Positions 16,958 to 53,742 of a DNA stretch of 64,000 bases are shown piece after piece (within the stretch, counting starts at the first letter, position 1; each line of letters starts with the position of its first letter). Both the position numbers and the translations under genes were made by a program. The notes under the pieces were generated by a model. It worked only from the letters and a program-made list of their open reading frames with translations, was not told the DNA's origin and did not search any database. Source of the DNA: Balanoglossus misakiensis (taxonomy: Eukaryota; Animalia; Hemichordata); NCBI GenBank assembly GCA_040954595.2, contig CM082592.2, forward strand, positions 1,178,001-1,242,000, in the 5' to 3' direction.

Positions 16958-16989
<32 letters not shown>

Positions 16990-16993
16990 GAAG

Positions 16994-26628: not shown

Positions 26629-26948
26629 AAAAACCCCAACGAAACCAATAGGGCCCAAGCGCAAGCAAGCGCTTGGGCCCTAAAAATTCCAACGAAACCA
26701 ATAGGGCCCAAGCGCTTGCTTGCGCTTGGGCCCTAAAAATTCCAACGAAACCAATAGGGCCCAAGCGCTTGCTTGCGCTTGGGCCCTAAAAACCCCAACG
26801 AAACCAATAGGGCCCAAGCGCTGGTATGCGCTTGGGCCCTAAAAACCCCAACGAAACCAATAGGGCCCAAGCGCTGGTATGCGCTTGGGCCCTAAAAACC
26901 CCAACGAAACCAATAGGGCCCAAGCGCTGGTATGCGCTTGGGCCCTAA
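26629..26948. repeat. Stack of 6 hairpin caps (3 B-type, 3 A-type)
   Basis: 53 bp period; loops AAGCAA, TTGCTT, TTGCTT, TGGTAT x3. Confidence 0.95.
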
Positions 26949-29900: not shown

Positions 29901-30944
29901 GTCATGCAAAATTTGGGCAAGAAATTTTGACCCTATACTGGTCCATGTTCAACAAAAACCAAACCTATAGCCCTATTGGTTAGCCTGGAATTAGGTATGC
30001 ACATAATTAATGAGGTAGGCAGGTGTCACAGGTGATCCCCAATTTTGGCTTTTCAATTTTAGTCCCAACCCTCCAAACGCCAAGTCTGTACCTGCTCTGG
30101 ATGCCAAGATCTGGTAAAGTAGGTCAAAGGTCACCTGAGGTCACCCAAAATTTGGGCAAGAAATTTTGACCCTATACTGGTCCATGTCCCACAAGAACGA
30201 AACCTCTAGCCCTCTTCGTTAGCTCAGAATTAGGTATGCACATAATTAATGAGTTAAGCAGGTGTTACAGGTGAGCCTAAAATTTTGCCTTTTATTTTGG
30301 TGCCATTGTGCTCACTGACATATAGATAGTCACTGTACAAGACTATTGCACAGACCAGAATTCCACAATAAGACATGGACATAGCTTAACCATAGAGGTA
30401 TAAATAAAGGTATAAATTTAATAAAAAAATTAATATAAAAAAATCGGTCGATTTTTCATATTATTTTTTTCCGCTTAAAATTATTGACAAATGCTAGGCT
30501 AGCTGCACACCAAAGTTGGAGATGATCGGCCTAACAGATTTTGAGATATGTATGCATATTTATCCAAAATAATATGTTGTCATAGCTTAACTATGTAAAG
30601 TATAGGCACATGGCTTGGGCGAAAAATATGAAAAATAATACTTAAAAATCTTCTTCTCAAAATTGACATGGCCTATGGCCTTGACATTTGGCATGTAGAA
30701 CCCTGGCCATGTGGTCCACAAAGCATCTGAACAGAATTTTGATATCTCAATTCATATGCAAATTAGGCCGATTTGAAAATTTTGCCCATATATGGTCATC
30801 AGGTCACATGACTTATTAAACATTCACAAGGGTACTGCACCAGCTCTCATTGGCCTGCACCATTGTGCTAAGTTTGAAATTGGTAGGTTCAGCCGTTCTC
30901 CAGATCTACCTGGCCGAAAAAACTACACAAGAAGAAGTAGAAGA

Positions 30945-32646
30945 AAATATAGCTGCAAGCAGCAATAGCGGGCCCAAGCCAACATAGCACATAGCAACAT
31001 AGCAATAAGCATATTTGCTCTGGATGCCAAGATATGGAAAATTAGGTCAAAGGTCACCTGAGGTCATGCAAAAATTTGGGCAAGAAATTTTGATCCTATA
31101 CTAGTCCATGTTCAACAAAAACCAAACCTATAGCCCTATTGGTTAGCCTGGAATTAGGTATGCACATAATTAATGAGATATGCAGGTGTCACAGGTGACC
31201 CCCAATTTTGGCTTTTCAATTTTAGTTCCAACCCTCCAAACTCCAAGTCTGTACCTGCCCTGGGTGCCAAGATATGGTAAAGTAGGTCAAAGGTCACCTG
31301 AGGTCATGCAAAATTTGGGCAAGAAATTTTGACCCTATACTGGTCCATGTTCAACAAAAACCAAACCTATAGCCCTATTGGTTAGCCTGGAATTAGGTAT
31401 GCACATAATTAATAAGATATGCAGGTGTCACAGGTGACCCCCAATTTGGCTTTTCAATTTTAGTCCCAACCCTCCAAACGCCAAGTCTGTACCTGCCCTG
31501 GGTGCCAAGATATGGTAAAGTAGGTCAAAGGTCACCTGAGGTCATGCAAAATTTGGGCAAGAAATTTTGACCCTATACTGGTCCATGTTCAACAAAAACC
31601 TAACCTATAGCCCTATTGGTTAGCCTGGAATTAGGTATGCACATAATTAATGAGGTATGCAGGTGTCACAGGTGACCCCAAATTTTGGCTTTTCAATTTT
31701 AGTCCTAACCCTCCAAACGCCAAGTCTGTACCTGCTCTGGATGCCGAGATATAGGAAAGTAGGTCAGAGGTCACCTGAGGTCACCCAAAATTTGGGCAAG
31801 AAATTTTGACCCTATACTGGTCCATGTCCCACAAGAACGAAACCTCTAGCCCTCTTAGTTAGCCCAAAATTAGGTATGCACATAATTAATGAGTTAAGCA
31901 GGTGTTACAGGTGAGCCTAAAATTGTGCCTTTTATTTTGGTGCCATTGTGCTCACCGACCAATAGACAGTCACTGTACAGGACTATTGCACAGACCAGAA
32001 TTCCACAATAAGACATGGACATAGCTTAACCATAGAGGTATAAGTAAAGGTATTATTTAATAAAAAAATTAATATAAAAAAATCGGTCGATTTTTCATAC
32101 TATTTTTTTTCGCTTAAAATTATTGACAAATGCTAGGCTAGCTGCACACCAAAGTTGGAGATGATCGGCCTAACAGATTTTGAGATATGTATGCATATTT
32201 ATCCAAACTAATATGTGGTCATGGCTTTACTATGGAAAGTATAGGCCCAGGGCTGGGTGAAAAAATATGAAAAATAATACTTACAAATCTTCTTCTCAAA
32301 ATTGGCATGGCCAATGGCCTTGACATTTGGCATGTAGGACACTGACCACATGGTCCGCAAAAGTTGCTAAAAGAATTTTGATATCTCCATTCATATGCAA
32401 ATAAGGCCGATTTGAAAATTTTGCCCATATATGGTCATCAGGTCATGTGACTAATTAAACATTCACAAGGGTACTGCACTAGCTCTCATTGACCTGCACC
32501 ATTGTGCCAAGTTTGAAATTGGTAGGTTTAGCAGTTTTCCAGATGTAGCTCACCAAAAAAACGACAGAAGAAGAAGAAGAAGAAGAAGAAAAAGAAAAAC
32601 TCCAGTAAAAACAATAGGGCCCAAGCCTGCTGGGCTTGGGCCCTAA
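30945..32646 (-). mobile_element. Uninterrupted single copy, subfamily C
   Basis: Head AATATAGCTGCAAGCAGCAATAGCGGGCCCAAGCCAAC, ~239 bp internal tandem repeats, (GAA)n tract, cap with loop CCTGCTGGG at 32596-32645. Confidence 0.8.
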
Positions 32647-35600
32647 ATATAGCTGCAAGCAGCAATAGCGGGCCCAAGCCAACATAGCACATAGCACATA
32701 GCAACATAGCAATAAGCATATTTGCTCTGGATGCCAAGATATGGTAAAGTAGGTCAAAGGTCACCCGAGGTCAAGCAAAATTTGGGCAAGAAATTTTGAA
32801 CCTATACTGGTCCATGTTCAACAAAAACCAAACCTATAGCCCTATTGGTTAGCCTGGAATTAGGTATGCACATAATAAATGAGATATACAGGTGTCACAG
32901 GTGACCCCAATTTTGGCTTTTCAATTTTAGTCCCAACCCTCCAAACGCCAAGTCTGTACCTGCTCTGGATGCCGAGATATAGGAAAGTAGGTCAAAGGTC
33001 ACCTGAGGTCACCCAAAATTTGGGCAAGAAATTTTGACCCTATACTGGTCCATGTTCAACAAAAACCAAACCTATAGCCCTATTGGTTAGCCTGGAATTA
33101 GGTATGCACATAATAAATGAGATATACAGGTGTCACAGGTGACCCCCATTTTGGCTTTTCAATTTTAGTCCCAACCCTCCAAACGCCAAGTCTGTACCTG
33201 CTCTGGATGCCGAGATATAGGAAAGTAGGTCAAAGGTCACCTGAGGTAACCCAAAATTTGGGCAAGAAATTTTGACCCTATACTGGTCCATGTCCGACAA
33301 GAACGAAACCTCTAGCCCTCTTAGTTAGCCCAGAATTAGGTATGCACATAATTAATGAGTTAGGCAGGTGTTACAGGTGAGCCTAAAATTGTGCCTTTTA
33401 TTTTGGTCCAATTGTGCTCACTGACCAATAGACAGTCACTGTACAGGACTATTGCACAGACCAGAATTCCACAATAAGAAATGGACATAGCTTAACCATA
33501 GAGGTATAAGTAAAGGTATACATTTAAAAAAAAAATTAATATCAAAAAATCGGTCGATTTTTCATATTATTTTTTTTTGCTTAAAATTATTGACGAATGC
33601 TAGGCTAGCTGCACACCAAAGTTGGAGATGATCGGCCTAACAGATTTTGAGATATGTATGCATATTTATCCAAAATAATATGTGGTCATAGCTTTACTAT
33701 GTAAAGTATAGGCCCATGGCTTGGGCGAAAAATATGGAAAATAATACTTAAAAATCTTCTTCTCAAAATTGACATGGCTTATGGCCTTGACGTTTGGCAT
33801 GTAGAACCCTGGCCATATGGTCCACAAAGCATCTGAACAGAATTTTGATATCTCCATTCATATGCAAATTAGGCAAAATTGAAAATTTTGCCCATATATG
33901 GTCATCAGGTCACATGACTAATTAAACATTCACAAGGGTACAGCTCATGCTCTCAGAGGCCTGCACCACTGTGCCAACTTTGAGATTTGTAGGTTCAGCC
34001 GTTTTCAAGATCTACTTGACGAAAAAAACTACACAAGAAGAAGAAGAAATATAGCTGCAAGCAGCAATGGCGGGCCCAAGCCAACATAGCACATAGCAAC
34101 ATAGCAATAAGCATATCTGCTCTGGATGCCAAGATATGGAAAAGTAGGTCAAAGGTCACCTGAGGTCATGCAAAATTTGGGCGAGAAATTTTGACCCTAT
34201 ACTGGTCCATGTTCATCAAAAACCAAACCTATAGCCCTATTGGTTAGCCTGGAATTAGGTATGCACATAATTAATGAGGTAGGCAGGTGTCACAGGTGAC
34301 CCCCCAATTTGGCTTTTTAATTTTAGTCCCAACCATCTAAACGCCAATTCTGTATCTGCTCTGGATGCCAAGATATGGTAAAGTAGGTCAAAGGTCACCT
34401 GAGGTCATGCAAAATTTGGGCAATAAATTTTGACCCTATACTGGTCCACGTTCAACAAAAACCAAACCTATAGCCCTATTGGTTAGCCTGGAATTAGGTA
34501 TGCACATAATTAATGATGTAGGCAGGTGTCACAGGTGACCCCCAATTTTGCCTCTTCAATTTTAGTCCCAACGCTCCAAACGCCAAGTCTGTACCTGCTC
34601 TGGATGCCAAGATCTGGTTAAGTAGGTCAAAGGTCACCTGAGGTCATACAAAATTTGGGCAAGACATTTTGACCCTAAACAGGTCCATGTTCAACAAAAA
34701 CCAAACCTATTGCCCTATTGGTTAGCCTTGAATTAGGTATGCACATAATTAATGAGATATGCAGGTGTCACAGGTGACCCCCTTTTTGGCTTTTCAACTT
34801 TAGTCCCAACCCTCCAAACGCCAAGTATGTACCTGCTCTGGATGCCGAGATATAGGAAAGTAGGTCAAAGGTCACCTGGGGTCACCCAAAATTTGGGCAA
34901 GAAATGTTGACCCTATACTGGCCCATGTCCCACAAGAACGAAACCTCTAGCCCTCTTAGTTAGCCCAGAATTAGGTATGCACATAATTAATGAGTTTAGC
35001 AGGTGTTACAGGTGAGCCTAAAATCGTGCCTTTTATTTTGGTGCTATTGTGCTCACTGACCAATAGACAGTCACTTTACAGGACTATTGCACAGACCAGA
35101 ATTCCACAATAAGACATGGACATAGCTAAACCATAGAGGTATAAGTAAATGTATAAATTTAATAAAAAAATTAATATAAAAAAATCGGTCGATTTTTCAT
35201 ATTATTTTTTTTCGCTTAAAATTATTGACAAATGCTAGACTAGCTGCACACCAAAGTTGGAGATGATCGGCCTAACAGATTTTGAGATATGTATGCATAT
35301 TTATCCAAAATAATATGTGGTCATAGCTTTACTATGTAAAGTATAGGCCGATGGCTTGGGCGAAAAATATGGAAAATAATACTTAAAAATCTTCTCCTCA
35401 AAATTGACATGGCCTATGGCCTTGACATTTGGCATGTAGAACCCTGGCCATATGGTCCACAAAGTATCTGAACAGAATTTTGATATCTCAATTCATATGC
35501 AAATTAGGGCGATTTGAAAATTTTGCCCATATATGGTCATCAGGTCACGTGACTAATTAAACATTCACGAGGGTACTGCACCAGCTCTCATTGGCCTGCA

Positions 35601-35696
35601 CCATTGTACTAAGTTTGAAATTGGTAGGTTCAGCCGTTCTCCAGATCTAGCTGGACAAAAAAACGACACAAGAAGAAGAAGAAGAAGAAGTAGAAG

Positions 35697-37244
35697 AATA
35701 TAGCTGCAAGCAGCGATGACGGGCCCAAGCTTAAGCCGAAGGTCAAAGGTCATAAGCGGTCACCCGAAATTTTGGCAAGAAATTTTGACCCCATACTGGT
35801 CCGTGTCCCACAAGAACGAAATCTCTAGCCCTATTGGTTCGCCTACAATTAGGTATGCGCATAATTAATGAGATAAAGTGTAAGGCTCCATCAGGAGTTC
35901 CATCCCTCCAAATGCCAAGGCTGTATCTGCTGTGGATGCCGAGATATGGTAAATTAGGTCAAAGGTCACCTGAGGTCACCCAAAATTTGGGCAAAAAATT
36001 TTGACCCCATACTGGTCCATGTTCAGCATAAATCAAACCTCTAGCCCTATTGGTTAGCCTGGAATTAGGTATGCACATAATTAATGAGATAAGCAGGTGT
36101 CACAGGTGACCCCAATTTTGGCTTTTCAATTTTAGTCCCAACCCTCCAAACGCCAAGTCTGTACCTGCTCTGGATGCGGAAATATAGGAAAGTAGGTCAA
36201 AGGTCACCTGAGGTCATCCAAAATTTAGGCAATTTTTTTTAACCCCATACTGGTCCATGTCCCACAAGCACGAAACCTCTAACCCTACTGGTTAGCCTGT
36301 AATTAGGTATGCACATAATTAATGAGATATGCAGGTGTCACAGGTGACCCCCATTTTGGCTTTTCAACTTTAGTCCCAACCCTCCAAACGCCAAGTCTGT
36401 ACCTGCTGTGGATGCCGAGATATAGGAAAGTAGGTCAAAGGTCACCTGAGGTCACCCAAAATTTGGGCAAGAAATTTTGACCCTATACTGGTCCATGTCT
36501 CACAAGAACGAAACCTCTAGCCCTCTTAGTTAGCCCAGAATTAGGTATGCACATAATTAATGAGTTAAGCAGGTGTTACAGGTGAGACTAAACTTGTGCC
36601 TTTTATTTTGGTGCTATTGTGCTCACTGACCAATAGACAGTCACTGTACAGGACTATTGCACAGACCTGAATTCCACAATAAGACATAGACATAGCTTAA
36701 CCATAGAGGTATAATTAAAGGTATAAATTTAATAAAAAAATTAATATAAAAAAATCGGTCGATTTTTCATATTATTTTTTTTCGCTTAAAATTATTGACA
36801 AATGCTAGGCTAGCTGCACACCAAAGTTGGAGATGGTCGGCCTAACAGATTTTGAGATATGTATGCATATTTATCCAAAATACGATGTGGTCATAGCTTT
36901 ACTATGTGAAGTATAGGCCGATGGCTTGGGCGAAAAAAATATGAAAAATAATACTTAAAAATCTTCTTCTCAAAATTGACATGGCCTATGGCCTTGACAT
37001 TTGGCATGTAGAACCCTGGCCATATGGCCCACAAAGTATCTTAACAGAATTTTGATATCTCCATTCATATGCAAATTAGGCCAAATTGAAAATTTTGCCC
37101 ATATATGGTCATCAGGTCACATGACTAATTACACATTCACAAGGGTACTGCACCAGCTCTCATAGCCCTGCACCATTGTGCCAAATGTGAGATTTGTAGG
37201 TTCAGCCGTTTTCAAGATCTAGCTGGACAAAAAAACGACACAAG

Positions 37245-37276
<32 letters not shown>

Positions 37277-37332
37277 GAAGAAAAACCCCAGTAATACCAA
37301 TAGGGCCCAAGCCTGCTGGGCTTGGGCCCTAA
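35697..37332 (-). mobile_element. Uninterrupted subfamily C-prime copy, near-identical to 14627-17045 minus the MITE
   Basis: Diagnostic head GCAGCGATGACGGGCCCAAGCTTAAGCCG, shared only with the copy at 14627; same tail and cap. Confidence 0.85.
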
Positions 37333-37585
37333 AAAAAGCCAGTAATACCAATAGGGCCCAAGCCTGCTGGGCTTGGGCCCTAAAAACTCCAGCAAAAACA
37401 ATAGGGCCCAAGCCTGCTGGGCTTGGGCCCTAAAAAGCCAACAATACCAATAGGGCCCAAGCCTGCTTGGCTTGGGCCCTAAAAACCCCAGTAATACCAA
37501 TAGGGCCCAAGCCTGCTGGGCTTGGGCCCTAAAAACTCCAACGAAACCAATACGGGCCCAAGCCTGGCTTGGCTTGGGCCCGTAA
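37281..37585. repeat. Stack of 6 hairpin caps (5 C-type, 1 D-type)
   Basis: Five ~50 bp caps with AAGCCTGCT(G/T)GGCTT, then one D-type cap. Confidence 0.95.
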
Positions 37586-40500
37586 TTAAAGCTGCAAGCA
37601 GCATTGTCCGGGCCCAAGCTCTATTATCTGATCAGATTATTAGATATGCACATAATTAATGAGTAGAAACATAATGCTGTGTTTTATCCCATGAAATATC
37701 AAGGTTATATCTATGTTTGGTGTTGATATAGTGTTAAGTAGGTCAAAGGTCACCCAGAGGTCACCCACAATTTGGGCAGAAAATTTTGACCCATAGTGGT
37801 CCATGTCCAACAAAAACCAGATCTCTAGCCCTTTTGGTTAGCCCGAAATTAGGTATGCACATAAATAATGAGTTAAGCAGGTGTCACAGGTGACCCAAAA
37901 CTTTGGCTTTTCATTATGGCCCCATACCTCCAAACGCCAAGGCTGTATCTGCTGTGGATGTCGAGATATGCAAAACAGGTGAAAGGTCATCCGAGGTCAC
38001 CCAACATTTGGGCAAAAAAATTTGACCCAATACTGGTTCATGTCCAACAAAAACCAAACCTTTAGGTCTATTGGTTCATCTGTAATTAGGTATGCGCATA
38101 TTTAATGAGGTCAGCAGAGGTCAAAGGGGTCATGATAAGTAGCGAAATTTTTTGATCACATACAAATCCACATACATCAAAAACCAAAATCATAGCCCTA
38201 TAGGTTAGCCTGGAATTAGATATGCAGAAAAAAACGATGTGTCAAAAGTAGGTCAAAGGTCATTGCCAAAATTACCAAAATATTTGGGGTAGGTCCTGGC
38301 TGGGATGATACCAATGTGCACAAAAATCAGAACTCTGGTGCATTTAAAACACGTAGTATGAGCTATATATGCATATATGCAGGTTCTTAAAAAAGTAGGT
38401 CAAAGGTCATGTGAAAATTTCCAAAATATTTGCAACATATTCTAGTCATATCACGACTCATATCCATAAAAAGAATTTGTTTGCTATCTATTTTTAGACT
38501 AGAAAAATGATTTCTTAATTTTCGCTGGTTTTTACAAAATCCAATATGGCCGCCATAATCTTCGACCAATCACATTCCCCTTCGCAAACTTGTTAGACAT
38601 CTGTTTAATGACCACACACACCAAATCTTGTGACTCAGTTATCGCCGGTTCTTGAGAAGAAGATTTTTGAAATTTTACTAGGGTTTTTCGAAAATCCAAT
38701 ATGGCCGCCATAATCTTCGACCAATCACAATGCTTCTTATCAAACTTGATAGACATCAGTTAGGTGACCACATACCCCAAACCGCGTCACTCGGTTATCG
38801 CCGGTTCTGGAGAAGAAGATTTTTGAAATTTAAGCCAGATTTCAGAAAAAAAATTGTAGCAAAAAAACTGCAACATTTACAGCAAAATATCCAATTACAA
38901 AAATGATGGGTAGAAGGTAGACTACCTGCACACCAAATTTGAAGTCGATCTGACTTGTAGTTTCTGAGATCTGAGATTTGCATTTTTTCAGAAAATCCAA
39001 TATGGCCGCCAGGTCACGTGACTAATTAAAAATTCAAGGGTTCAATGCACGACTACTCATTGACCTTGACCACTGTAGCAAGTTTGAAAACTGTACCTGC
39101 AGTGGTGTCTGAGATCTAGAGCGACAAAGAAGTGAACCAAGAATAAAGAAAGAAAGAAAGAATTAAAGAAAGATTAAAGCTGCGAGCAGCATTGTCGGGC
39201 CCAAGCGCTGATCTTGAATTACATATGCACAGTATGAATGAGAAGAAACAGAATTTTCTATCGGATGTATTATCTCATGACATAACAAGGATGTGTGTAT
39301 TTTTGCTGCTGAAATAGGGTGAAGTAGGTCAAAGGTCACCTGAGGTCACCCAACATTTGGGCATTTTTTTTTACCCATACTGGTCCATGTCCAACAAAAA
39401 CCAAAACTCTAGCTCTATTGGTTCGTCTGTAATTAGGTATGTGCATATTTAATGAGGTCAGCAGGTGTCACAGGTGACCCAAAAATGTGGCTTTACATTT
39501 TGGTCCCATCCTACCAAATGCCATGGCTGTATCTGCTCTGGATGCTGAGATATGCGAAAGTAGGTCAAAGGTCACCAGAGGTCACCCAACATTTGGGCAA
39601 AAAATTTTGATCCCATACTGGTCCATGTCCAACAAAAACCAAACCTCTAGCTCTATTGGTTCGCCTGTAATTAGCTATGCACATAATTAATGAGGTCAGC
39701 AGAGGTCAAAGGGGTCATGAAAAGTAGCAAAATATTTTGATCACACACTAATCCACATGCATCAAAAAACAAAAGTCTAGCCCTATAGGTTAGCCTGGAA
39801 TTAGATATGCAGAAATAATAACGCGTGATAAGTAGGTCAAAGGTCATGTGAAAAATGGCCAAAAATTTGTAACATATTTTAGTCACATGACGATTGATAT
39901 CCATGAAAAGAATTTAGATGCTATCAATTTTTAGACAAGGAAAAGGAATTTCAATTTTTCACTGCTTTTTACAAAATCCAATATGGCCGCCATAATCTTC
40001 GACCAATCACAATGCTCTTTGCAAACTTGATAGAAATCAGTGTTGTGACCATACTCCCGGAATCTTGCGACTCAGTTATCGCCCGTTCTGGAGAAGAAGA
40101 TTTTTGCAGTTTTACTATAGTTTTTCGAAAATCCAATATGGCCGCCATAATCTTCGACCAATCACAATGCTTCTTATCAAACTTGATAGACATCAGTTAG
40201 GTGACCACATACCCCAAACCACGTCACTCGGTTATCACCGGTTCTTGAGAAGAAGATTTTTGAAGTTTTAGTTGGATTTTTCGAAAATCAAATATGGCGG
40301 CCAAAGTCACGTGACCGCTCGAGATTTTATTATCAAACTTTGTAGGGCAGAGGCCATGTGTACTATGTACCAAATTTGAACTTGATTTGCCTTGTAGTTT
40401 TTGAGAAGAAGTCATTTACATTTTTTCAGAAAATCCAATATGGCCGCCAGGTCACGTGACTAATTAAGTATTCACAAGTCACTGCACATCTACTCATTGA

Positions 40501-43500
40501 CTTTGACCACTGTAGCAAGTTTGAGCAGTGTACCTGCAGTAGTTTCAGAGATTTAGTTGGCCGAAGAATTGACACAAGAATAAAGAAAGAAAGAAAAATT
40601 CCAACGAAACCAATAGGGCCCAAGCGCTTGCGCGCGCTTGGGCCCTAAAAAACCCCAACGAAACCAATAGGGCCCAAGCGCTGCTGTGCGCTTGGGCCCT
40701 AATTAAAGCTGCGAGCAGCATTGTCGGGCCCAAGCGCTGATCTCGAATTATATATGCACAGTATGAATGAGAAGAAACAAAATTTTCTATCGGGTGTATT
40801 ATCTCATGACATAACAAGGACGTGTGTATTTTTGCTGCTGAAATAGGGTGAAGTATGTCAAAGGTCACTTGAGGTCACCCAACATTTGGGCAAATTTTTT
40901 TGACCCATACTGGTCCATGTCCAACAAAAACCAAAACTCTAGCTCTATTGGTTCGCATGTAATTAGGTATGTGCATATTTAATGAGGTCAGCAGGTGTCA
41001 CAGGTGACCCAAAAATGTGGCTTTACATTTTGGTCCCATCCTGCCAAATGCCAGGGATGTATCTGCTCTGGATGCTGAGATATGCGAAAGTAGGTCAAAG
41101 GTCACCAGAGGTCTTCCAAAATTTGGGCAAAAAATTTTGATCCCATACATGTCCATGTCCAACAAAAACCAAACCTCTAGCTCTATTGGTTCGCCTGTAA
41201 TTAGCTATGCACATAATTAATGAGGTCAGCAGAGGTCAAAGGGGTCATGAAAAGTAGCAAAATATTTTGATCACACACTAATCCACATGCATCAAAAACC
41301 AAACGTCTAGCCCTATAGGTTAGCCTTGAATTAGATATGCAGAAATAATAATGCGTGATAAGTAGGTCAAAGGTCATGTGAAAAATCGCCAAAAATTTGT
41401 AACATATTTTAGTCATATGACGATTGATATCCATGAAAAGAATTTGTATGCTATCAATTTTTAGACTAGTAAAAGGAATTTCAATTTTTCACTGCTTTTT
41501 ACGAAATCCAATATGGCCGCCATAATCTTCGACCAATCACAATGCTCTTTGCAAACTTGATAGACATCAGTGTTGTGACCATACTCCCCGAATCTTGCGA
41601 CTCAGTTATCGCCAGTTCTGGAGTAGAAGATTTTTGCAGTTTTACTATGGTTTTTCGAAAATCCAATATGGCCGCCATAATCTTCGACCAATCACAATGC
41701 TATTTATCAAACTTGATAGACATCAGTTAGGTAACCACATACCCCAAACCGCGTCACTCGGTTATCACCGGTTCTGGAGAAGAAGATTTTTGAAATTTAA
41801 GCCAGATTTCAGAAAAAAAATTGTAGCAAAAAAACTGCAACATTTACAGCAAAATATCCAATTACAAAAATGATGGGTAGAAGGTAGACTACCTGCACAC
41901 CAAATTTGAAGTCCATCTGACTTGTAGTTTCTGAGATCTGAGATTTGCATTTGTTCAGAAAATCCAATATGGCCGCCAGGTCACGTGACTAATTAAAAAT
42001 TCAAGGGTTCAGTGCACGACTACTCATTGACCTTGACCACTGTAGCAAGTTTGAAAACTGTACCTGCAGTGGTGTCTGAGATCTAGAGCGACAAAGAAGT
42101 GAACCAAGAATAAAGAAAGAAAGAAAGATTAAAGCTGCGAGCAGCATTGTCGGGCCCAAGCGCTGATCTTGAATTACATATGCACAGTATGAATGAGAAA
42201 AAACAGAATTTTCTATCGGATGTATTATCTCATGACATAACAAGGATGTGTGTATTTTTGCTGCTGAAATAGGGTGAAGTAGGTCAAAGGTCACCTGAGG
42301 TCACCCAACATTTGGGCAATTTTTTTGACCCATACTGGTCCATGTCCAACAAAAACCAAAACTCTAGCTCTATTGGTTCGTCTGTAATTAGGTATGTGCA
42401 TATTTAATGAGGTCAGCAGGTGTCACAGGTGACCCAAAAATGTGGCTTTACATTTTGGTCCCATCCTACCAAATGCCATGGCTGTATCTGCTCTGGATGC
42501 TGAGATATGCGAAAGTAGGTCAAAGGTCACCAGAGGTCACCCAACATTTGGGCAAAAAATTTTGATCCCATACTGGTCCATGTCCAACAAAAACCAAACC
42601 TCTAGCTCTATTGGTTCGCCTGTAATAAGCTATGCACATAATTAATGAGGTCAGCAGAGGTCAAAGGGGTCATGAAAAGTAGCAAAATATTTTGATCACA
42701 CACTAATCCACATGCATCAAAAACCAAAAGTCTAGCCCTATAGGTTAGCCTGGAATTAGATATGCAGAAATAATAACGCGTGATAAGTAGGTCAAAGGTC
42801 ATGTGAAAAATTGCCAAAAATTTGTAACATATTTTAGTCACATGACGATTGATATCCATGAACAGAATTTAGATGCTATCAATTTTTAGACAAGGAAAAG
42901 GAATTTCAATTTTTCACTGCTTTTTACAAAATCCAATATGGCCGCCATAATCTTCGACCAATCACAATGCTCTTTGCAGACTTGATAGACATCAGTGTTG
43001 TGACCATACTCCCCGAATCTTGCGACTCAGTTATTGCCCGTTCTGGAGAAGAAGATTTTTGCAGTTTTACTATGGTTTTTCGAAAATCCAATATGGCCGC
43101 CATAATCTTCGACCAATCACAATGCTTCTTATCAAACTTGATAGACATCAGTTAGGTGACCACATACCCCAAACCGCGTCACTTGGTTATCACCGGTTCT
43201 GGAGAAGAAGATTTTTGAAATTTAAGCCAGATTTCAGAAAAAAAATTGTAGCAAAAAAACTGCAACATTTACAGCAAAATATCCAATTACAAAAATGATG
43301 GGTAGAAGGTAGACTACCTGCACACCAAATTTGAAGTCGATCTGACTTGTAGTTTCTGAGATCTGAGATTTGCATTTTTTCAGAAAATCCAATATGGCCG
43401 CCAGGTCACGTGACTAATTAAAAATTCAAGGGTTCAATGCACGACTACTCATTGACCTTGACCACTGTAGCAAGTTTGAAAACTGTACCTGCAGTGGTGT

Positions 43501-45001
43501 CTGAGATCTAGAGCGACAAAGAAGTGAACCAAGAATAAAGAAAGAAAGAAAGAAAGAAAGAAAGAATTAAAGCTGCGAGCAGCATTGTCGGGCCCAAACG
43601 CTGATCTTGAATTACATATGCACAGTATGAATGAGAAGAAACAGAATTTTCTATCGGATGTATTATCTCATGACATAACAAGGATGTGTGTATTTTGCTG
43701 CTGAAAATGGGTGAAGTAGGTCAAAGGTCACCTGAGGTCACCCAACATTTGGGCAATTTGTTTGACCCATACTGGTCCATGTCCAACAAAAACCAAAACT
43801 CTAGCTCTATTGGTTCGTCTGTAATTAGGTATGTGCATATTTAATGAGGTCAGCAGGTGTCACAGGTGACCCAAAAATGAGGCTTTACATTTTGGTCCCA
43901 TCCTACCAAATGCCATGGCTGTATCTGCTCTGGATGCTGAGATATGCGAAAGTAGGTCAAAGGTCACCAGAGGTCACCCAACATTTGGACAAAAATTTTT
44001 GATCCCATACTGGTCCATGTCCAACAAAAACCAAACCTCTAGCTCTATTGGTTCGCCTGTAATTAGCTATGCACATAATTAATGAGGTCAGCAGAGGTCA
44101 AAGGGGTCATGAAAAGTAGCAAAATATTTTGATCACACACTAATCCACATGCATCAAAAACCAAAAGTCTAGCCCTATAGGTTAGCCTGGAATTAGATAT
44201 GCAGAAATAATAACGCGTGATAAGTAGGTCAAAGGTCATGTGAAAAATCGCCAAAAATTTGTAACATATTTTAGTCATATGACGATTGATATCCATGAAC
44301 AGAATTTAGATGCTATCAATTTTTAGACAAGGAAAAGGAATTTCAATTTTTCACTGCTTTTTACAAAATCCAATATGGCCGCCATAATCTTCGACCAATC
44401 ACAATGCTCTTTGCAGACTTGATAGACATCAGTGTTGTGACCATACTCCCCGAATCTTGCGACTCAGTTATTGCCCGTTCTGGAGAAGAAGATTTTTGCA
44501 GTTTTACTATGGTTTTTCGAAAATCCAATATGGCCGCCATAATCTTCGACCAATCACAATGCTTCTTATCAAACTTGATAGACATCAGTTAGGTAACCAC
44601 ATACCCCAAACCGCGTCACTTGGTTATCACCGGTTCTGGAGAAGAAGATTTTTGAAATTTAAGCCAGATTTCAGAAAAAAAATTGTAGCAAAAAAACTGC
44701 AACATTTACAGCAAAATATCCAATCACAAAAATGATGGGTAGAAGGTAGACTACCTGCACACCAAATTTGAAGTCGATCTGACTTGTAGTTTCTGAGATC
44801 TGAGATTTGCATTTTTTCAGAAAATCCAATATGGCCGCCAGGTCACGTGACTAATTAAAAATTCAAGGGTTCAATGCACGACTACTCATTGACCTTGACC
44901 ACTGTAGCAAGTTTGAAAACTGTACCTGCAGTGGTGTCTGAGATCTAGAGCGACAAAGAAGTGAACCAAGAATAAAGAAAGAAAGAAAGAAAGAAAGAAA
45001 G

Positions 45002-45384
45002 AAAAACCCCAACGAAACCAATAGGGCCCAAGCGCTGCTGTGCGCTTGGGCCCTAAAAACCCCAACGAAACCAATAGGGCCCAAGCGCTGCTGTGCGCTT
45101 GGGCCCTAAAGAACCCCAACGAAACCAATAGGGCCCAAGCGCTGCTATGCGCTTGGGCCCTAAAAACCCCAACGAAACCAATAGGGCCCAAGCGCTGGTA
45201 TGGGCTTGGGCCCTAAAAATTCCAACGAAACCAATACGGGCCCAAGCCTGGCTTGGCTTGGGCCCGTAAAAAATTCCAACGAAACCAATACGGGCCCAAG
45301 CCTGGCTTGGCTTGGGCCCGTAAAGAAAGAAAAACCCCAACGAAACCAATACGGGCCCAAGCCTGGCTTGGCTTGGGCCCGTAA
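45002..45384. repeat. Terminal stack of 7 hairpin caps closing the cluster
   Basis: Loops TGCTGT x2, TGCTAT, TGGTAT, then 3 D-type caps; unrelated repeat follows. Confidence 0.95.
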
Positions 45385-48300
45385 TAAATTCTTTTCTTAG
45401 TTTCAAACGGGTAGAGATACTTTCCACACGGGTTTTCTGACATTGAATTCCCGTTCATCAACTCAGATTTCCTACAGCATAAGTCGGCTAAAACCCTGAC
45501 ACTCTAGAGCAGAAACAGTTGCACACTGGTAACGTTGAACAAGTCGATTTTTCTACGGCCTGGCTCGGCTAAATCTCCGTCACAATAGTCATGTTTCATA
45601 AGTCAGGTCCATGACATATGTACCGACATCTGTGATTGGTCCATCTGGTAATCTTAGGTCCACTTGAGGCACGGTGATTGGAGGGACCTTATGTGTTAGG
45701 TCTTATTATTATGTATTATTCACTAGACCTTGTAGGTTAGGTCTTATTACTATGTATTATTCACTTTACAGCTCCCTCATTGGTTAATGTGTAGGTCTGG
45801 TCCTCCAGTGTTCACTGCCTCATTATGCAGGACCTTGTAGGTTAGGTCTTATTAACATGCATTTATTCAATTTTCAGCTCCCTGATTGGTTAATGTGTAG
45901 GTCTCCAATTTTCACTGCCTCGTTATGCAAAGTCTTTTGTACTTTCTGAATACAGTTGTCGTATTCTGTCTGGCATGCTGCCTGCGCGTTGTCGAAGCTC
46001 GATCCCAGTGTATAAAGAAAGGCACTCATATAATGATTGGATTTAACCTTTCCTTCACTATTCATGGCATTTTTTTGTGATACTGTGAACTAGATACTCG
46101 AAATAAAAATTGCCAGGAGAATTTTTTTATTTTATTTCCAGTGGCGGTTTGTTGAAATGGGCTAGTGTTTTGTTACGTAATGCTTTTCAGCGCATCACTT
46201 CGTGTAACACCTGGCTGAATACGAAGTGTGTGCTATTCATTCGAGCAAACCAAAAATATCTTACAATAGAACTGTTTAGAATAGCATTGCATTTCTTTAA
46301 TTGGGATACCTCATTAGTTGCTTTACAGGTATGATTACTTTTATTGTACTTCTTTCACGAAGCTGCACCGTCATAGTTCCATTTTTATGAAAACAATATA
46401 CGAATGTATAAACGGACAACGTACTCCTTTTCACAACATCTACGTCAAAACAAATTTACTTTAAAATAGTAAAACAACAATAATAATATTGATGATGAGA
46501 AGTAGGAGGGTGATTTAAGAAAATATACAACTGTTAGCAAAAATGCTTAGATGTGTTAATCAGATTTTCAAAGTCCATCTAAAAATCATTTAATCTTTCC
46601 AGGGTGCGGTTTATGTTGGAGATAGTATCAGTCAGGCTATTTCTCAGAAAATTAATGAATGATCTGCGGACATCCCGAATAATGTGTTACCACAACGCTA
46701 GCCAGGAAGCACATGGGACATTTCACAATGAGGCAGTGAACACTGGGAAACCAGACTGACACGTTAACCAATCAGGGAGCTGTATGGTGAATAAATACAT
46801 ATTAATATGACCTAACCTACAAGGTCCTGTATTATGAGGCAGTGAACACATGGGGGACCAAACTGACACGTTAACCAATCAGGGAGCTGTAAAGCGAAAA
46901 ATGCATAGTAATAAGACCTAACCTACAAGGTCTAGTGAATAATACATAATAATAAGACCTAACCTACAAGGTCCCTCCAATCAGCGTGCCGCAAGTGGAC
47001 CTAAGAGAAGCGGATAAACCAATCATAACATGCAAAACATGTGTATAGGACGTGTAATGTAGGTCATTTTGAAACAGGACTAATATGACAGACACTAGCG
47101 TACGTTAGCAACGGTGATCAAGTCAGATTTTCTACGGCATGGCTTGGATAAAGCCCCGGCACTCTAGAGCAGAAACACGCGTACAGAGACCACGTTGATC
47201 AAGTCTGATCTCCTACGGCTTGGCTCGACTAAAACCCCGGCACACTATGACAGACACTAGCGTTCGTTAGCAACGTTGATCAAGTCAGATTTCCTACGGC
47301 ATGGCTTGGCTAAAGCCCTGGCACTCTAGACCAGAAACACGCGTACAGAGAACACGTTGATCAACTCACATTTCCTTCGGCCTGGCACGGCTGATGCCTC
47401 GGCACTAAATACAGGACACAGACTGGCGTAAGTTATCAACGGTGATTACGTCGGATTTCCTACGGCCTGGCTCTGCAAAAGACCCGACACTCTAGCACAA
47501 AGACGTTGGCTAAGTCGGACAAACCGAAGAGGTAAAGTCACAGCGGGTTGTTCGGGTAGGACTGCATTATTGCCCGTCAATTTATAGAGAAAGCCCGAAT
47601 TTAACCAGGGCGTTTCAAACACCGACGTTAGTTGGGGGCACGGCCTGCAGTACTGCCGGGTAAGCTGACATAGGCGTACCGCATGTAATGTAGGGGGGGG
47701 AACAGAACGGTTCAATACTACATTTATTAGATATCAGCTAATTTTGGACAATCATCTAAAATCTAAATCATTTTTTCATATTTGGATATCTGATGATGTA
47801 TGAAATTTCCATTATATGTAAAAATGGTGCTGATTATAAAAAATGCACTCTGAATGAGCTGATTTAATACAAAATTGCGTTTTATTCGTTTTTGCACCAA
47901 AAAGGTCATTTTTAGGCAAAACCTTCTTTATTTTTTTAATTCGGTGACCTTATCATATATAAACAATTGCTTGTATGTTAACAGTTTTTATGACTCTTAA
48001 AAGCAGTGACACTGGCGGCATTCAAGACGAAAATAACCATTTTAGCCACATTTTGGTCAAAAATGGTAAATTTTTGAAAATTACGAAAAATAACACTTTT
48101 CTACATTTTCGGTAAACTGATGGAGTATAGAATGCCCTTCGTATGTATATATCGATACAATTTCCACAAAAGACAGTCTAATTTGGCTCACTGCAGACAA
48201 AATTGCATGTTATCAAATTTTGCTTGAAAATGTCATTTTTAGAAAAACAATTAAAAAAAGCTTTAATTGTTCTTCGAATTCGGTGCCCTGATTATATATG

Positions 48301-51300
48301 ACATGTTCATTGTATGTTAAAAGTTTCGACCACTCCAAAAATGCAGAGATATTTTTTCGAAAAATTGTCTTTTTTACAAAATAAATAAGAATAAAATCTT
48401 TTCTTAGTTTCAAACGGGTAGAGATACTTTCCACACGGGTTTTCTAACATTGAATTCCCGTTCATCAACTCAGATTTCCTACAGCATAAGTCGGCTAAAA
48501 CCCTGACACTCTAGAGCAGAAACAGTTGCACACTGGTAACGTTGAACAAGTCGATTTTTCTACGGCCTGGCTCGGCTAAATCACCGTCACAATATGACAG
48601 ACACTAGCGTACGTTAGCAACGGTGATCAAGTCAGATTTTCTACGGCATGGCTTGGCTAAAGCCCTGGCACTCTAGAGCAGAAACACGCGTACAGAGACC
48701 ACGTTGATCTACTCACATTTCCTTCGGCCTGGCACGGCTGATGCCCCGGCACTAAATACAGGACACAGACTGGCGTAAGTTAACAACTGTAATCACGTCG
48801 GGATTCCTACGGCCTGGCTCAGCTGAAGCCCCGGCACTCTAGAGCAGAAACAGGCGTACATTGACCACGTTGATCAAGTCAGATTTCCTACGGCGTGACT
48901 CGGCTGGTGCACCGGCTCTATATGACACAGACTGGCGTAAGTTATCAACGGTGATTACGTCGGATTTCCTACGGCCTGGTTTAGCTGAAGCCCCGGCACT
49001 TTAGAGCGGAAACACGCGTACATTGACCACGATGATCAAGTCAGATCTCCTACGGCCTGGCTCGACTAAAACCCCGGCACACCATGACAGACACTAGCGT
49101 TCGTTACCAACGGTGATCAAGTCGGATTTCCTTCGGCCTGGCTCTGCAAAAGACCCGACACTCTAGTACAAAGACGTTGGCTAAGTCGGACAAACCGAAG
49201 AGGGAAAGTCACTGCAGGTCAACACTCGACATTTGTTCGGGTAGGACTGTATTATTGCCTGTCAATTTATAGAGAAAGCCCGAATTTAACCAGGGCGTTT
49301 CAAACACCGACGTTAGTTGGGGGCACGGCCTGCAGTACTGCCGGGTAAGCTGACATCGGCGTACCACATATAATGTAGGGGGGTGGGGGAAACAGAACGG
49401 TTCAATACTACATTTATTAGATATCAGCTAATTTTGGACAATCATCTAAAATCTAAATCATTTTTTTCATATTTGGATATCTGATGATGTATGAAATTTC
49501 CATTATATGTAAAAAATGGTGCTGATTATAAAAAAATGCACTCTGAATGAGCTGATTTAATACAAAATTGCGTTTTATTCGTTTTTGCACCAAAAAGGTC
49601 ATTTTTAGGCAAAACATTCTTTATTTTTTTAATTCGGTGACCTGATCATATATAAACAATTGCTTGTATGTTAAAAGTTTTTATCACTCTTAAAAGCAGT
49701 GACACTGGCGGCATTCAAGACGAAAATAACCATTTTAGCCCCATTTTGGTCAAAAATGGTAAATTTTTGAAAATTACGAAAAATAACACTTTTCTACGTT
49801 TTCGGTAATCTGATGGAGTATAGAATGCCCTTCGTATGTATATATCGATACAATTTCCACAAAAGACAGTCTAATTTGGCTCACTGCAGACAAAATTGCA
49901 TGTTATCAAATTTTGCTTGAAAATGTCATTATTAGAAAAACAATTAAAAAAACCTTTGTTCTTCGAATTTGGTGCCCTGATCATATATGACATGTTGATT
50001 GTATGTTAAAACTTTCGACCACTCCAAAAATGCAGAGATATTGACGGAATTAAAAAAAAATAGTCATTTTGGCCATATTTTGACAAAAATGGTAAATTTT
50101 TAAAAAATCATAAAAAATTAACTCTTTTCTTCATTTTCGGAAATATTATGGAGCATGAAGTGTCGTTCTCTTGTAAAAAGTGCTGCAAAATCCAGAAAAG
50201 GCGGTATAATTTGAATCACCCAAGACAAAATTACCATTTTATGACTTTTTTTCGAAAAATTGTCTTTTTTACAAAACAAATAAGAATAAATTCTTTTCTT
50301 AGTTTGAAACGGGTAGAGATACTTTCCACACGGGTTTTCTAACATTGAATTCCCGTTCATCAACTCAGATTTCCTACAGCATAAGTCGGCTAAAAGCCTG
50401 ACACTCTAGACCAGAAACACGCGTACAGAGACCACGTTGATCAAGTCTGATCTCCTACGGCTTGGCACGGCTGATGCCCCGGCACTAAATACAGGACACA
50501 GACTGGCGTAAGTTAACAACTGTAATCACGTCGGGATTCCTACGGCCTGGCTCAGCTGAAGCCCCGGCACTCTAGAGCAGAAACAGGCGTACATTGACCA
50601 CGTTGATCAAGTCAGATTTCCTACGGCGTGACTCGGCTGGTGCACCGGCTCTATATGACACAGACTGGCGTAAGTTATCAACGGTGATTACGTCGGATTT
50701 CCTACGGCCTGGTTTAGCTGAAGCCCCGGCACTTTAGAGCGGAAACACGCGTACATTGACCACGATGATCAAGTCAGATCTCCTACGGCCTGGCTCGACT
50801 AAAACCCCGGCACACCATGACAGACACTAGCGTTCGTTACCAACGGTGATCAAGTCGGATTTCCTTCGGCCTGGCTCTGCAAAAGACCCGACACTCTAGT
50901 ACAAAGACGTTGGCTAAGTCGGACAAACCGAAGAGGGAAAGTCACTGCAGGTCAACACTCGACATTTGTTCGGGTAGGACTGTATTATTGCCTGTCAATT
51001 TATAGAGAAAGCCCGAATTTAACCAGGGCGTTTCAAACACCGACGATAGTTGGGGGCACGGCCTGCAGTACTGCCGGGTAAGCTGACATCGGCGTACCGC
51101 ATATAATGTAGGGGGGTGGGGGAAACAGAACGGTTCAATACTACATTTATTAGATATCAGCTAATTTTGGACAATCATCTAAAATCTAAATCATTTTTTT
51201 CATATTTGGATATCTGATGATGTATGAAATTTCCATTATATGTAAAAAATGGTGCTGATTATAAAAAAATGCACTCTGAATGAGCTGATTTAATACAAAA

Positions 51301-53742
51301 TTGCGTTTTATTCGTTTTTGCACCAAAAAGGTCATTTTTAGGCAAAACATTCTTTATTTTTTTAATTCGGTGACCTGATCATATATAAACAATTGCTTGT
51401 ATGTTAAAAGTTTTTATGACTCTTAAAAGCAGTGACACTGGCGGCATTCAAGACGAAAATAACCATTTTAGCCCCATTTTGGTCAAAAATGGTAAATTTT
51501 TGAAAATTACGAAAAATAACACTTTTCTACGTTTTCGGTAATCTGATGGAGTATAGAATGCCCTTCGTATGTATATATCGATACAATTTCCACAAAAGAC
51601 AGTCTAATTTGGCTCACTGCAGACAAAATTGCATGTTATCAAATTTTGCTTGAAAATGTCATTTTTAGAAAAACAATTAAAAAAACCTTTGTTCTTCGAA
51701 TTTGGTGCCCTGATCATATATGACATGTTGATTGTATGTTAAAACTTTCGACCACTCCAAAAATGCAGAGATATTGACGGAATTAAAAAAAAATAGTCAT
51801 TTTGGCCATATTTTGACAAAAATGGTAAATTTTTAAAAAATCATAAAAAATTAACTCTTTTCTTCATTTTCGGAAATATTATGGAGCATGAAGTGTCGTT
51901 CTCTTGTAAAAAGTGCTGCAAAATCCAGAAAAGGCGGTATAATTTGAATCACCCAAGACAAAATTACCATTTTATGACTTTTTTTCGAAAAATTGTCTTT
52001 TTTACAAAACAAATAAGAATAAATTCTTTTCTTAGTTTGAAACGGGTAGAGATACTTTCCACACGGGTTTTCTAACATTGAATTCCCGTTCATCAACTCA
52101 GATTTCCTACAGCATAAGTCGGCTAAAAGCCTGACACTCTAGATCAGAAACACGCGTACAGAGACCACGTTGATCAAGTCTGATCTCCTACGGCTTGGCT
52201 CGACTAAAACCCCGGCACACTTTGACAGACACTAGCGTTCGGTAGCAACGTTGATCAAGTCAGATTTCCTACGGCATGGCTTGGCTAAAGCCCTGGCACT
52301 CTAGAGCAGAAACAGGCGTACATTGACCACGTCTACGGCATGGCTTGGCTGAGGCCCCGGAACTCTAGAGCAGAAACAGGCGTACATTGACCACTTTGAT
52401 CAAGTCAGATTTCCTACGGCGTGACTCGGCCTGTGCACCGGCTCTATATGACACAGACTGGCGTAAGTTATCAACGGTTATTACGTCGGATTTCCTACGG
52501 CCTGGCTCAGCTGAAGCCCCGGCACTTTAGAGCGGAAACACGCGTACATTGACCACGTTGATCAAGTCAGATCTCCTACGGCCTGGCTCGACTAAAACCC
52601 CGGCACACCATGACGGACACTAGCGTTCGTTAGCAACGGTGATCAAGTCGGATTTCCTTCGGCCTGGCTCTGCAAATGACCCGACACTCTAGTACAGAGA
52701 CGTTGGCTGGTCAACACTCGACATTTGTTCGGGTATTATTGCATTATTGCCTGTCAATTTATAGAGAAAGTCCGAATTTAACCAGGGCGTTTCAAACACC
52801 GACGTTAGTTGGGGGCACGGCCTGCAGTACTGTCGGGTAAGCTGACATCGGCGTACCGCATATAATGTAGGGGGGGGGGAACAGAACGGTTCAATACTAC
52901 ATTTATTAGATATCAGCTAATTTTGGACAATCATCTAAAATCTAAATCATGTTTTCATATTTGGATATCTGATGATGTATGACATTTCCATTATATGTAA
53001 AAATGGTGCTGATTATAAAAAATGCACTCTGAATGATCTGATTTAATACAAAATTGCGTTTTATTCGTTTTTGCACCAAAAAGGTCATTTTTAGGCAAAA
53101 CATTCTTTATTTTTTTAACTCAGTGACCTGATCATATATAAAGAATTGCTTGTATGTTAAAAGTTTTTATGACTTTTAAAAGCAGTGACACTGGCGGCAT
53201 TCAACACGAAAATAAAAATTTTAGCCACAATTTGGTCAAAATGGTAATTTTTTGAAAATTACAAAAAATACCTGTTTTCTACATTTTCGGAAATCTGATG
53301 GAGTATAAAATGCTCTTCGTATGTATATATCGATACAAATTCCATAAAAGACAGTCTAATTTGGCTCACTGCAGACAAAATTGTGTTTTATCAAATTTTA
53401 CTTGAAAATGTCATTTTTAGAAGAAAAAAATAATAAAAAAACCTTTGTTCTTCGAATTTGGTGCCCTGATCATATATGACATGTTGATTGTATGTTAAAA
53501 CTTTCGACCACTCCAAAAATGCAGAGATATTGACGGAATTCAAGAAAAAATAGCCATTTTGGCCATATTTTGACAAAAATGGTAAATTTTTAAAAAATCA
53601 TAAAAAATAAACTCTTTTCTTCATTTTCGGAAATATTATGGAGCATGAAGTGTCGTTCTCTTGGAAAAAGTGCTGCAAATTCCAGAAAAGGCGGTATAAT
53701 TTGAATCACCCAAGACAAAATTACCATTTTCGACTTTTTTCG
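45385..53742. repeat. Tandem array of about four 1.5-1.9 kb units with GC-rich ~60 bp subrepeats and an AT-rich half
   Basis: Marker GTAGAGATACTTTCCACACGGG at ~45411, 48418, 50314, 52047; marker TGTAG(G)nAACAGAACGGTTCAATACTAC at ~47689, 49375, 51107, 52866; subrepeat GATCAAGTCAGATTTCCTACGGC. ORF translations 50118-50363 and 51851-52096 are identical and 1733 bp apart. Confidence 0.9.
45587..47081. mobile_element. 1495 bp non-autonomous TIR element with 3 bp TSD AAT (possibly PIF/Harbinger group)
   Basis: Termini AGTCATGTTTCA / TGAAACAGGACT; ~300 bp imperfect inverted arms containing GACCTTGTAGGTTAGGTCTTATTA repeats; TSD AAT at 45584-45586 and 47082-47084; empty site CGTCACAATATGACAG at ~48585. 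Confidence 0.88.

Follow-up and report, generated by a model that had tools for sequence, protein, structure and literature searches.

An apparent last-in-first-out nest of HINE-type Helentron relatives in a 64-kb window of the hemichordate Balanoglossus misakiensis

Non-autonomous Helentrons of the HINE type (group HLE2) are recognized, in published criteria, by subterminal inverted repeats (subTIRs) of about 11–13 bases, the 5' one lying 2–4 bases from the terminus, and by a short inverted repeat (IR) 1–22 bases away from it. A preference for TT or oligo-T targets is reported for Cg_HINE and DINE-1/HINE (PMC7492417, PMC4067079) and appears in the HLE2 rules (PMC11417382). Here we describe an array of putative HINEs inserted into one another in a stretch of 64,000 nucleotides from Balanoglossus misakiensis (assembly GCA_040954595.2, contig CM082592.2, positions 1,178,001–1,242,000 of the forward strand), hereafter the window. 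Like HINE/DINE-1 as presented in PMC4067079, the array elements have a 5' subTIR that almost reaches the terminus, with a short complementary IR nearby, a microsatellite, central tandem repeats and a 3' subTIR followed by a putative short stem-loop; they likewise have T-rich termini, appear to lie in T-rich (TT) targets and are non-coding. The array family matched no described family, and deep, ordered self-nesting is not described for HINE/DINE-1 in the accessible part of PMC4067079. Cg_HINE of the Pacific oyster shows the same order of 5' subTIR, IR, 4-base microsatellite, repeats of about 160 bases, 3' subTIR and palindrome, and inserts at oligo-T or TT without target duplication, according to PMC7492417. 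The family, and probably the host, differs from Cg_HINE, because five repeat-unit strings of the window had no occurrence in two supplementary files of PMC7492417 and the subTIR string of the window had one chance-like occurrence there, inside an array.

Other described elements share single traits with this locus. The pearl, DTC84 and mini-me 'MITEs' (miniature inverted-repeat transposable elements) of bivalves and insects consist, by the account in PMC3879986, of a left flank, core repeats, a tetranucleotide microsatellite and a right flank, and have AA at both termini when read on the strand equal to the + strand of the window; the older pearl/DTC84 description thereby views this kind of element from the opposite strand. 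In that source the AA counts as a MITE's target duplication, 2 bases long, whereas here it would belong to T-rich Helentron termini, and the word 'nested' does not occur in its text. Insertion into a relative near its end, as at our locus, is reported for the Helitron2-like FoHeli elements of Fusarium (PMC5148889) and for maize Helitrons (PMC3288121), where duplicated short 5' termini go with one 3' terminus and nests have been proposed as their source; the maize source gives the mirror case of the Fusarium elements with several 5' termini. As described in these sources, however, such nests are one or two layers deep, whereas at least 37 layers or serial events occurred at the single locus studied here, which moreover offers newcomers a defined tract to land in, T5 plus microsatellite, and preserves a last-in-first-out record that can be read. 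MuTAnT shares the preference for simple-sequence targets but is Mutator-like and goes for TA repeats in host DNA instead of a tract borne by the element (PMC4486113), and shuffled or tandemized Helitron parts have been described in oyster (PMC8268682, PMC12628747). A full-text search for the subTIR strings returned unrelated papers only, and within a limited literature collection nothing was found that describes elements stacked deeply and in order in their own microsatellite. Since self-insertion and nesting of Helitron-like elements are already published, the array is an unusually deep but ordinary case and leaves knowledge of the Helentron mechanism unchanged, while the sequence family itself appears to be new among HINEs.

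The window has a G+C content of 32–42% throughout and looks eukaryotic. Two motifs were used to parse the array, the cap, a hairpin retrieved with the regular expression GGGCC[CT]AAGC..G[CG]TTGGGCC[CT], and the head, retrieved with AGCTGC[AG]AGCAGC. There are 37 caps and 29 heads, every one on the + strand; the minus strand of the window has no match to the head motif, and looser scans of the window added no further partial cap or head. The spacer motif of the cap matched 30 times, against 0.32 expected from shuffles. Writing heads as '(' and caps as ')' yields the string )(((()))))()((())))(()))((()(((())))))(((()((())))))(())((())))))) for the array, and last-in-first-out closure pairs 29 of 29 heads and leaves over 8 caps, with hairpins at 528, 7245, 13191, 17140, 45184, 45238, 45292 and 45353. 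The corresponding cap units, which begin about 22 bases before the hairpin, start at 506, 7222, 13168, 17117, 45162, 45215, 45268 and 45329. An original prediction made from the sequence alone had subtracted 29 heads from 37 caps to obtain these same eight unmatched caps, and motif counts and parse agree with it. Its use of 'head' and 'cap' for the start and the end of the element has to be turned round, as under the published HINE layout caps are 5' ends, heads are 3' ends and the elements lie on the minus strand, the canonical 5'-to-3' strand of an array whose elements all share one orientation.

Read on the minus strand, the 5' part of an element consists of TTA, the 5' subTIR, a loop of 5–6 bases, the complementary IR, a spacer, T5 and (CTTT)n or (CTT)n, and the remainder comprises a body with repeats, the 3' subTIR, the palindrome GCTGCTYGCAGC and TTTAATT. 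The 5' subTIR is preceded by TTA or TTAC, and its hairpin has a stem of 13–14 pairs, a loop of 5–6 bases and a folding energy of −16.8 to −18.9 kcal/mol, with 0 of 200 shuffles as stable. A microsatellite, (AAAG)n or (AAG)n on the + strand, adjoins the hairpin module, and the bodies contain tandem repeats of 155/156 bases (two copies) or 238/239 bases (1.8–3.8 copies). Both ends share the subTIR string GGGCCCAAGC(GCT), over 10–14 letters in 28 of the 29 last-in-first-out pairs and over 8 letters in the remaining one. The 3' stem-loop GCTGC-TY-GCAGC, 7 bases from the end, occurs in 29/29 copies and in both families. Just two frames of at least 130 aa are found in the array, both crossing cap stacks, and none in the bodies; Rfam at gathering thresholds gave no match in the whole window, and Pfam found no Rep/helicase gene in it, only DDE_Tnp_4, zf-RVT and a sub-threshold QRICH1 match, all outside the array. 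By this layout the elements are assignable to the HINEs, small non-coding elements of the Helentron rolling-circle type that lie on the minus strand. A canonical Helitron (HLE1; 5'-TC...hairpin...CTRR-3', inserted at A/T) is ruled out by the order TTA-hairpin...stem-loop-TTTAATT and by the subterminal inverted repeats, and taking the + strand as the sense strand would put microsatellite and IR at the 3' end and make the target A^A, in contradiction to the published layout.

The strongest evidence for nesting comes from the agreement of types between the two ends that the parse brings together. Tail distance and cap distance were correlated (Mantel r 0.755) under last-in-first-out pairing and less so (0.545) under first-in-first-out pairing, and none of 10000 random pairings reached 0.755, nor did any of 10000 within-block shuffles, the highest of which gave 0.753. 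The tail gcgacaaagaattgaca pairs with CCCC caps having the loop TGGTAT or TGGCTT in 6/6 copies, the tail gcgacaaagaagtgaacc with loops TGCTGT or TGCTAT in 4/4 copies, and the tail ggccgaagaattgaca with TTCC caps in 9/10, the exception (copy 25198) carrying the same loop inverted; both B' copies, 14633 and 35702, are paired with a ccccagtaatacc cap. Closed blocks are balanced, with 7/7, 7/7, 2/2 and 1/1 bodies and caps. Host microsatellites are split around their guests: in copy 21211 the motif GAAGGAAAGACAG closes the microsatellite on the left side of the guest, in hosts 565 and 2000 it stands beyond the guests, on their right, and AGACAGAA is sandwiched by both guests of host 18605. Because of the type concordance, the split host microsatellites and the balanced blocks, the last-in-first-out nest, which had also been proposed in the original prediction, is well supported as a genuine one; independent amplification of bodies and caps, or misassembly, would not yield the mirrored order.

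The junctions point to where newcomers land. Among cap-to-cap junctions, 21/26 are direct (T + A5-7 + spacer, at a T5 run) and 5/26 retain a microsatellite remnant, while 8/10 cap-to-head junctions are direct. Each insertion separates the 5' hairpin module of the resident from its microsatellite, body and 3' end; repeated insertions therefore leave a run of bodies and, after it, as many 53-base hairpin modules, which close last-in-first-out. Very probably, then, the array is a nest of HINEs in which newcomers landed, always in one orientation, in the T5 + (CTTT)n tract, T-rich on the minus strand, that lies directly behind the 5' hairpin of a resident. Direct junctions would reflect insertion in the T5 run and remnant junctions insertion deeper into the microsatellite. 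The elements would have been mobilized in trans by a Helentron Rep/helicase/endonuclease encoded outside the window, with integration at T^T and no target duplication, and every insertion would regenerate a T5 run and so renew its own landing pad. The asymmetry of the target strand would account for the orientation that all copies share. A later copy could go one level deeper, into the tract of the guest, or settle beside the guest in the recreated tract of the host, and both arrangements, guest-in-guest and guest-beside-guest, are present. An element that bears its preferred target can in this manner build a locus of >45 kb that mimics a 1.4 kb satellite with a flanking 53-base minisatellite; to repeat annotators and satellite surveys such a locus would likely pass for a tandem repeat having 'a box on one side only'. 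In practice, the array yields a rule for parsing, brackets combined with type concordance, and a prediction about the adjacent sequence that can be tested.

The stack is also an ordered record of >36 insertions at one locus. As the order of insertion is recorded, relative ages of subfamilies follow from it: D-capped copies are outermost, and A1-type copies host A2-type copies three times while A2 never hosts A1. The A1 copies are also more diverged among themselves than the A2 copies (mean 0.858 vs 0.945). That a guest is a copy of its own host was considered and rejected, the host being the nearest relative in only 2/21 pairs; since guests are rarely the nearest relatives of their hosts, the copies are not simple host re-insertions. 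Coordinates are collected in the table.

Table. Positions of the array, its unmatched 5' ends and the comparison sites within the window; a slash marks the point in an uninterrupted repeat unit that corresponds to the insertion
Feature	Position	Strand	Basis
Whole array: 29 complete HINE-type elements and 8 further 5'-end modules	506..45382	-	motif counts
Unmatched 5'-end module U1, hairpin 528-557	506..560	-	parse
Unmatched 5'-end module U2, hairpin 7245-7274	7222..7277	-	parse
Complete guest-free copy: 3' end, body with 155-base repeat twice, microsatellite, 5' hairpin	7278..8691	-	
Unmatched 5'-end module U3, D-type, hairpin 13191-13218	13168..13222	-	parse, module typing
Unmatched 5'-end module U4, hairpin 17140-17169	17117..17172	-	parse
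Copy 26969, sole body in the window with a D-type 5' end (37554)	26965..37585	-	parse, typing
Three nested bodies, starts 40703, 42129, 43567	40703..45001	-	97-99% mutual identity
Three 5'-end modules, loops TGCTGT, TGCTGT, TGCTAT, closing copies 43571, 42133, 40707 last-in-first-out	45002..45161	-	
Four stacked 5'-end modules, no partner within the window	45162..45382	-	parse, module typing
Right flank: distal part of the interrupted repeat unit, then more units	45383..48389	+	45383-45587 vs 48390-48594, 98.5%
Empty paralogous site TACAAAATAAATAAG/AATAAAATC, closest to the interrupted unit	48375..48403	+	98.5% over 205 bases
Empty paralogous site TACAAAACAAATAAG/AATAAATTCTTTTC	50270..50298	+	repeat comparison
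Empty paralogous site, again TACAAAACAAATAAG/AATAAATTCTTTTC	52003..52031	+	repeat comparison

The right-hand edge of the array, 45002–45382, is formed by seven head-to-tail copies of a unit of about 53 bases, each with an A-run, a spacer of 17–18 bases (CCCCAACGAAACCAATA or a TTCC variant) and a perfect hairpin of 12–14 bp, GGGCCCAAGCGC-loop-GCGCTTGGGCCC. DNA folds of modules of this stack type reach −18.6 to −18.9 kcal/mol (z −5.1 to −5.6). The three bodies that the inner modules close each have a 3' end made of the 3' subTIR, the stem-loop GCTGCTCGCAGC and TTTAATT, and each ends in (AAAG)n. Of the four modules left open, the innermost has a C-type hairpin (45184–45213) with the loop TGGTAT and a G in the stem, and the outer three have D-type hairpins (45238–45265, 45292–45319 and 45353–45380), as the original prediction had stated for the three outermost caps. 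The D-type hairpin, CGGGCCCAAGCC-TGGCTT-GGCTTGGGCCCG, has a stem lengthened by C..G and recurs at 13191 and 37554. The three outer modules are nearly identical to each other, and a remnant of 7–10 bases of (AAAG) at about 45323–45330 separates the last two.

The eight spare ends, U1–U8, are likely those of copies that have their bodies and 3' ends in the sequence upstream of the window. That exactly eight net heads stand there is, in our estimate, an even bet; eight would be an upper expectation and not a necessity, and the number could be lower, because by the route proposed in PMC5148889 a nest nicked at its outermost 5' end gives rise to elements in which a single 3' terminus goes with several 5' ones. 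The outer three copies are predicted to have tails like that of copy 26969, on the basis of one cap–tail association (26969/37554). This copy, which hosts six B-family guests with 238-base repeats and an (AAG)n tract, carries the tail ctaggagagcaaagattgacataag, and the parse closes it with the D-type cap at 37554; the original prediction had listed it as 26963.

From 45383 onward the flank reads AATAAATTCTTTTCTTAG and continues a tandem repeat with units of 1.7–1.9 kb. This repeat spans 45383–53750, with unit starts at 48390, 50285 and 52018 after a first unit (45383–48389) of about 3 kb, and its 1.7–1.9 kb units contain internal subrepeats of 81/162 bases and inverted repeats of 40–106 bases. 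Uninterrupted units read ..TACAAAA(T/C)AAATAAG/AATAAA.. at 48375, 50270 and 52003; the first of these matches the flank best, at 98.5%, against 89.4% and 88.7% for the units at 50270 and 52003. The outermost 5' end abuts its original T-rich target, which on the minus strand reads ..GAATTTATT/CTTATTTG.., and the 1.7 kb repeat appears, from these comparisons, to host the founder insertion. Targets are T-rich on the minus strand in every form seen, T5, (CTTT)n and TTTATTCTTATTT. In the original prediction, intact units had been noted near 50276 and 52010, to which the sites at 50270 and 52003 correspond and to which the one at 48375 is an addition, and the founder had been placed at AAG^AA. The interruption of the repeat at ..AAATAAG(AA)/ bears this out, but besides AAG^AA two other placements fit equally well (the three read TT^CTT, T^TCTT or ^TTCTT on the minus strand), because the AA (TT on the minus strand) may be part of either the element or the target. 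The upstream string that they predict is identical. The AA at both junctions fits a 2-base duplication as well as element termini, a comparison that draws on three paralogous empty sites and one left-junction contig.

If the founder entered the 1.7 kb repeat, the left flank is expected to read ..TTTTTTACAAAA(C/T)AAATAAGAA, then TTAAAGCTGCAAGCAGC. Sequencing runs with parts of the stretch were X1–X3 (organism A, one sample, possibly the source of the assembly) and X4–X5 (organism B), and their contigs were aligned to the closest empty-site paralogue, 48200–48600. One Logan contig of X1 fits up to 48396 and then runs out into the loose end GCTGCAAGCAGC, reading ..AAGAATTAAA+GCTGCAAGCAGC; apart from one mismatch at 48393, this is the predicted ..AAATAAGAA+TTAAAGCTGCAAGCAGC junction, and the contig has the A-variant head palindrome, like copy 26969. 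The left flank from the 1.7 kb repeat, also foreseen in the original prediction, is weakly supported by the 12 loose letters of this X1 contig, which have no bearing on the count of eight. Contigs aligned to 37000–52500 were short only, and their joints are alternative placements of repeated junctions, uninformative on the left junction. The element families stand at high summed depth in X1/X2, where 4508/10262 X1 contigs are at least 99% alike, and X4/X5 contigs are mostly 90–95% alike (X4: 520/650).

Several observations weigh against the reading of the array as a nest that grew from one founder in the 1.7 kb repeat. That no head stays unmatched is by itself not significant, as 47359 of 200000 symbol shuffles (24%) and 65841 of 200000 run-length shuffles (33%) did the same; the weight of the evidence lies in the type concordance. 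Guests are not measurably younger than their hosts by nearest-neighbour identity (21 pairs: higher in 11, lower in 9, p 0.41), and nesting depth is not correlated with identity (rho 0.23, p 0.24). The 3' stem-loop, with a fold of −3 kcal/mol, is no better than shuffles and draws its support from its conservation in 29/29 copies only. The preference for T5 over the microsatellite may merely be the known liking for oligo-T. The count of eight is extrapolated from the 64-kb window. For the left junction there is one contig, whose loose end has 12 letters and whose fitted length is not shown, X1 is possibly the assembly's own sample, and the summed word depth of the 1.7 kb repeat in X1/X2 is 10^4 to 10^6, so that the junction contig could come from another copy of this abundant repeat. 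Scans of the metagenome_contigs and genome_contigs collections with the cap strings returned 0 loci, and with them no independent copy or orthologous empty site.

Among the alternatives, the one that survives best accepts the nest but takes some unmatched hairpin modules as extra 5' termini of composite elements, so that fewer than eight heads would be found upstream. A nest nicked at an outer 5' end and copied through to the first 3' end would give such a composite. For Fusarium FoHeli this route has been proposed, and elements that combine several 5' termini with a single 3' one have been observed (PMC5148889); nest-derived multi-terminus Helitrons are described for maize (PMC3288121). A founder of this kind would import spare hairpin modules without matching bodies; the near-identity of the three D-type modules with one another speaks in its favour, and within the window the 5' end of an outer host looks no different from a spare one. 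On the other side, every cap in the closed blocks has a cognate tail, and 0 of the 29 elements in the window need a second 5' end. A separate insertion would explain the microsatellite remnant between the last two D-type modules, although it would also be carried along in a composite. In the X1 contig a head adjoins the repeat where predicted, and the outermost copy, at least, therefore seems to be complete. We regard composites among the unmatched modules as possible, with roughly one chance in three.

Going beyond the preferred reading of a nest in a T-rich tract, the transposase might be drawn to the 5' hairpin of the resident, so that integration homes to the adjacent T5 and not to T-rich DNA generally; recursive self-nesting would then be a main source of Helentron-derived 'long-monomer satellites' (1–2 kb units, tandem-like, with one element end missing). 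We consider this extension unlikely. Tandem amplification without insertion, by unequal crossing-over or by rolling-circle concatemers of truncated units, as proposed for Helitron arrays at centromeres, together with separate slippage of the 53-base unit, is far less probable still. Tandem truncated Helitron arrays with crossing-over are the usual explanation in the oyster literature, as far as PMC8268682 and PMC12628747 present it, and some adjacent caps are identical, for example those at 26810, 26863 and 26916, but amplification predicts neither the equal run lengths (7/7, 7/7, 2/2, 1/1) nor the mirrored types (0/10000 within-block shuffles), leaves the split host microsatellites unpredicted, and in its concatemer form involves units without 3' ends, whereas the units here keep their 3' ends and lack 5' ends. 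Least credible of all is that the unit order is an assembly artefact of a highly repeated region: the units are 1.1–2.4 kb long and 85–99% alike, the family is very abundant in the runs and the aligned records are all short contigs with no array-spanning long read among them, but a random misjoin would disrupt the mirrored types, 29/29 pairs close with near-perfect concordance, and a divergence of 1–15% between copies suffices for long-read assembly.

The copies of the nest vary in form. Repeats of the 238-base type and of the 155-base type occur together in copy 2000 (1996–3664), copy 14633 (14629–16993) exceeds its relative 35702 in length by about 780 bases, and copies 20036 and 21211 (20032–22329) represent a short form of about 1.1 kb. 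Copies 40707, 42133 and 43571 combine an A2-type 3' end with an A1-like tail, heads and tails having been recombined between subfamilies. The hairpin at 26651–26680, the sole exception to the TTCC-type concordance of tails and caps, shows an exact inversion of the loop, with GCGC-AAGCAA-GCGC in place of GCGC-TTGCTT-GCGC, and has the CCCC and not the TTCC variant of the spacer; the inversion may stem from hairpin/cruciform processing or template switching. In copy 37590 the microsatellite (39140–39173) includes GAATTAAAGAAAGA, the first 8 letters of a 3' terminus, which may be a footprint or a chance match.

Outside the array, three frames on the minus strand gave Pfam matches. A frame of 221 aa at 57108–57773 matches DDE_Tnp_4 (E 1.5e-33) and looks like a fragment of a PIF/Harbinger-type transposase, and one of 222 aa at 62375–63043 matches zf-RVT (E 7.3e-09) and is likely a remnant of a non-LTR (long terminal repeat) retrotransposon; the third, 163 aa at 55430–55921, has a QRICH1 match just under the curated cut-off. 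Arrays of a repeat of about 155 bases at 58709–59000 and 61459–61753 have consensus units that are seemingly reverse complements and enclose about 2.4 kb, and they may be the inverted ends of another element.

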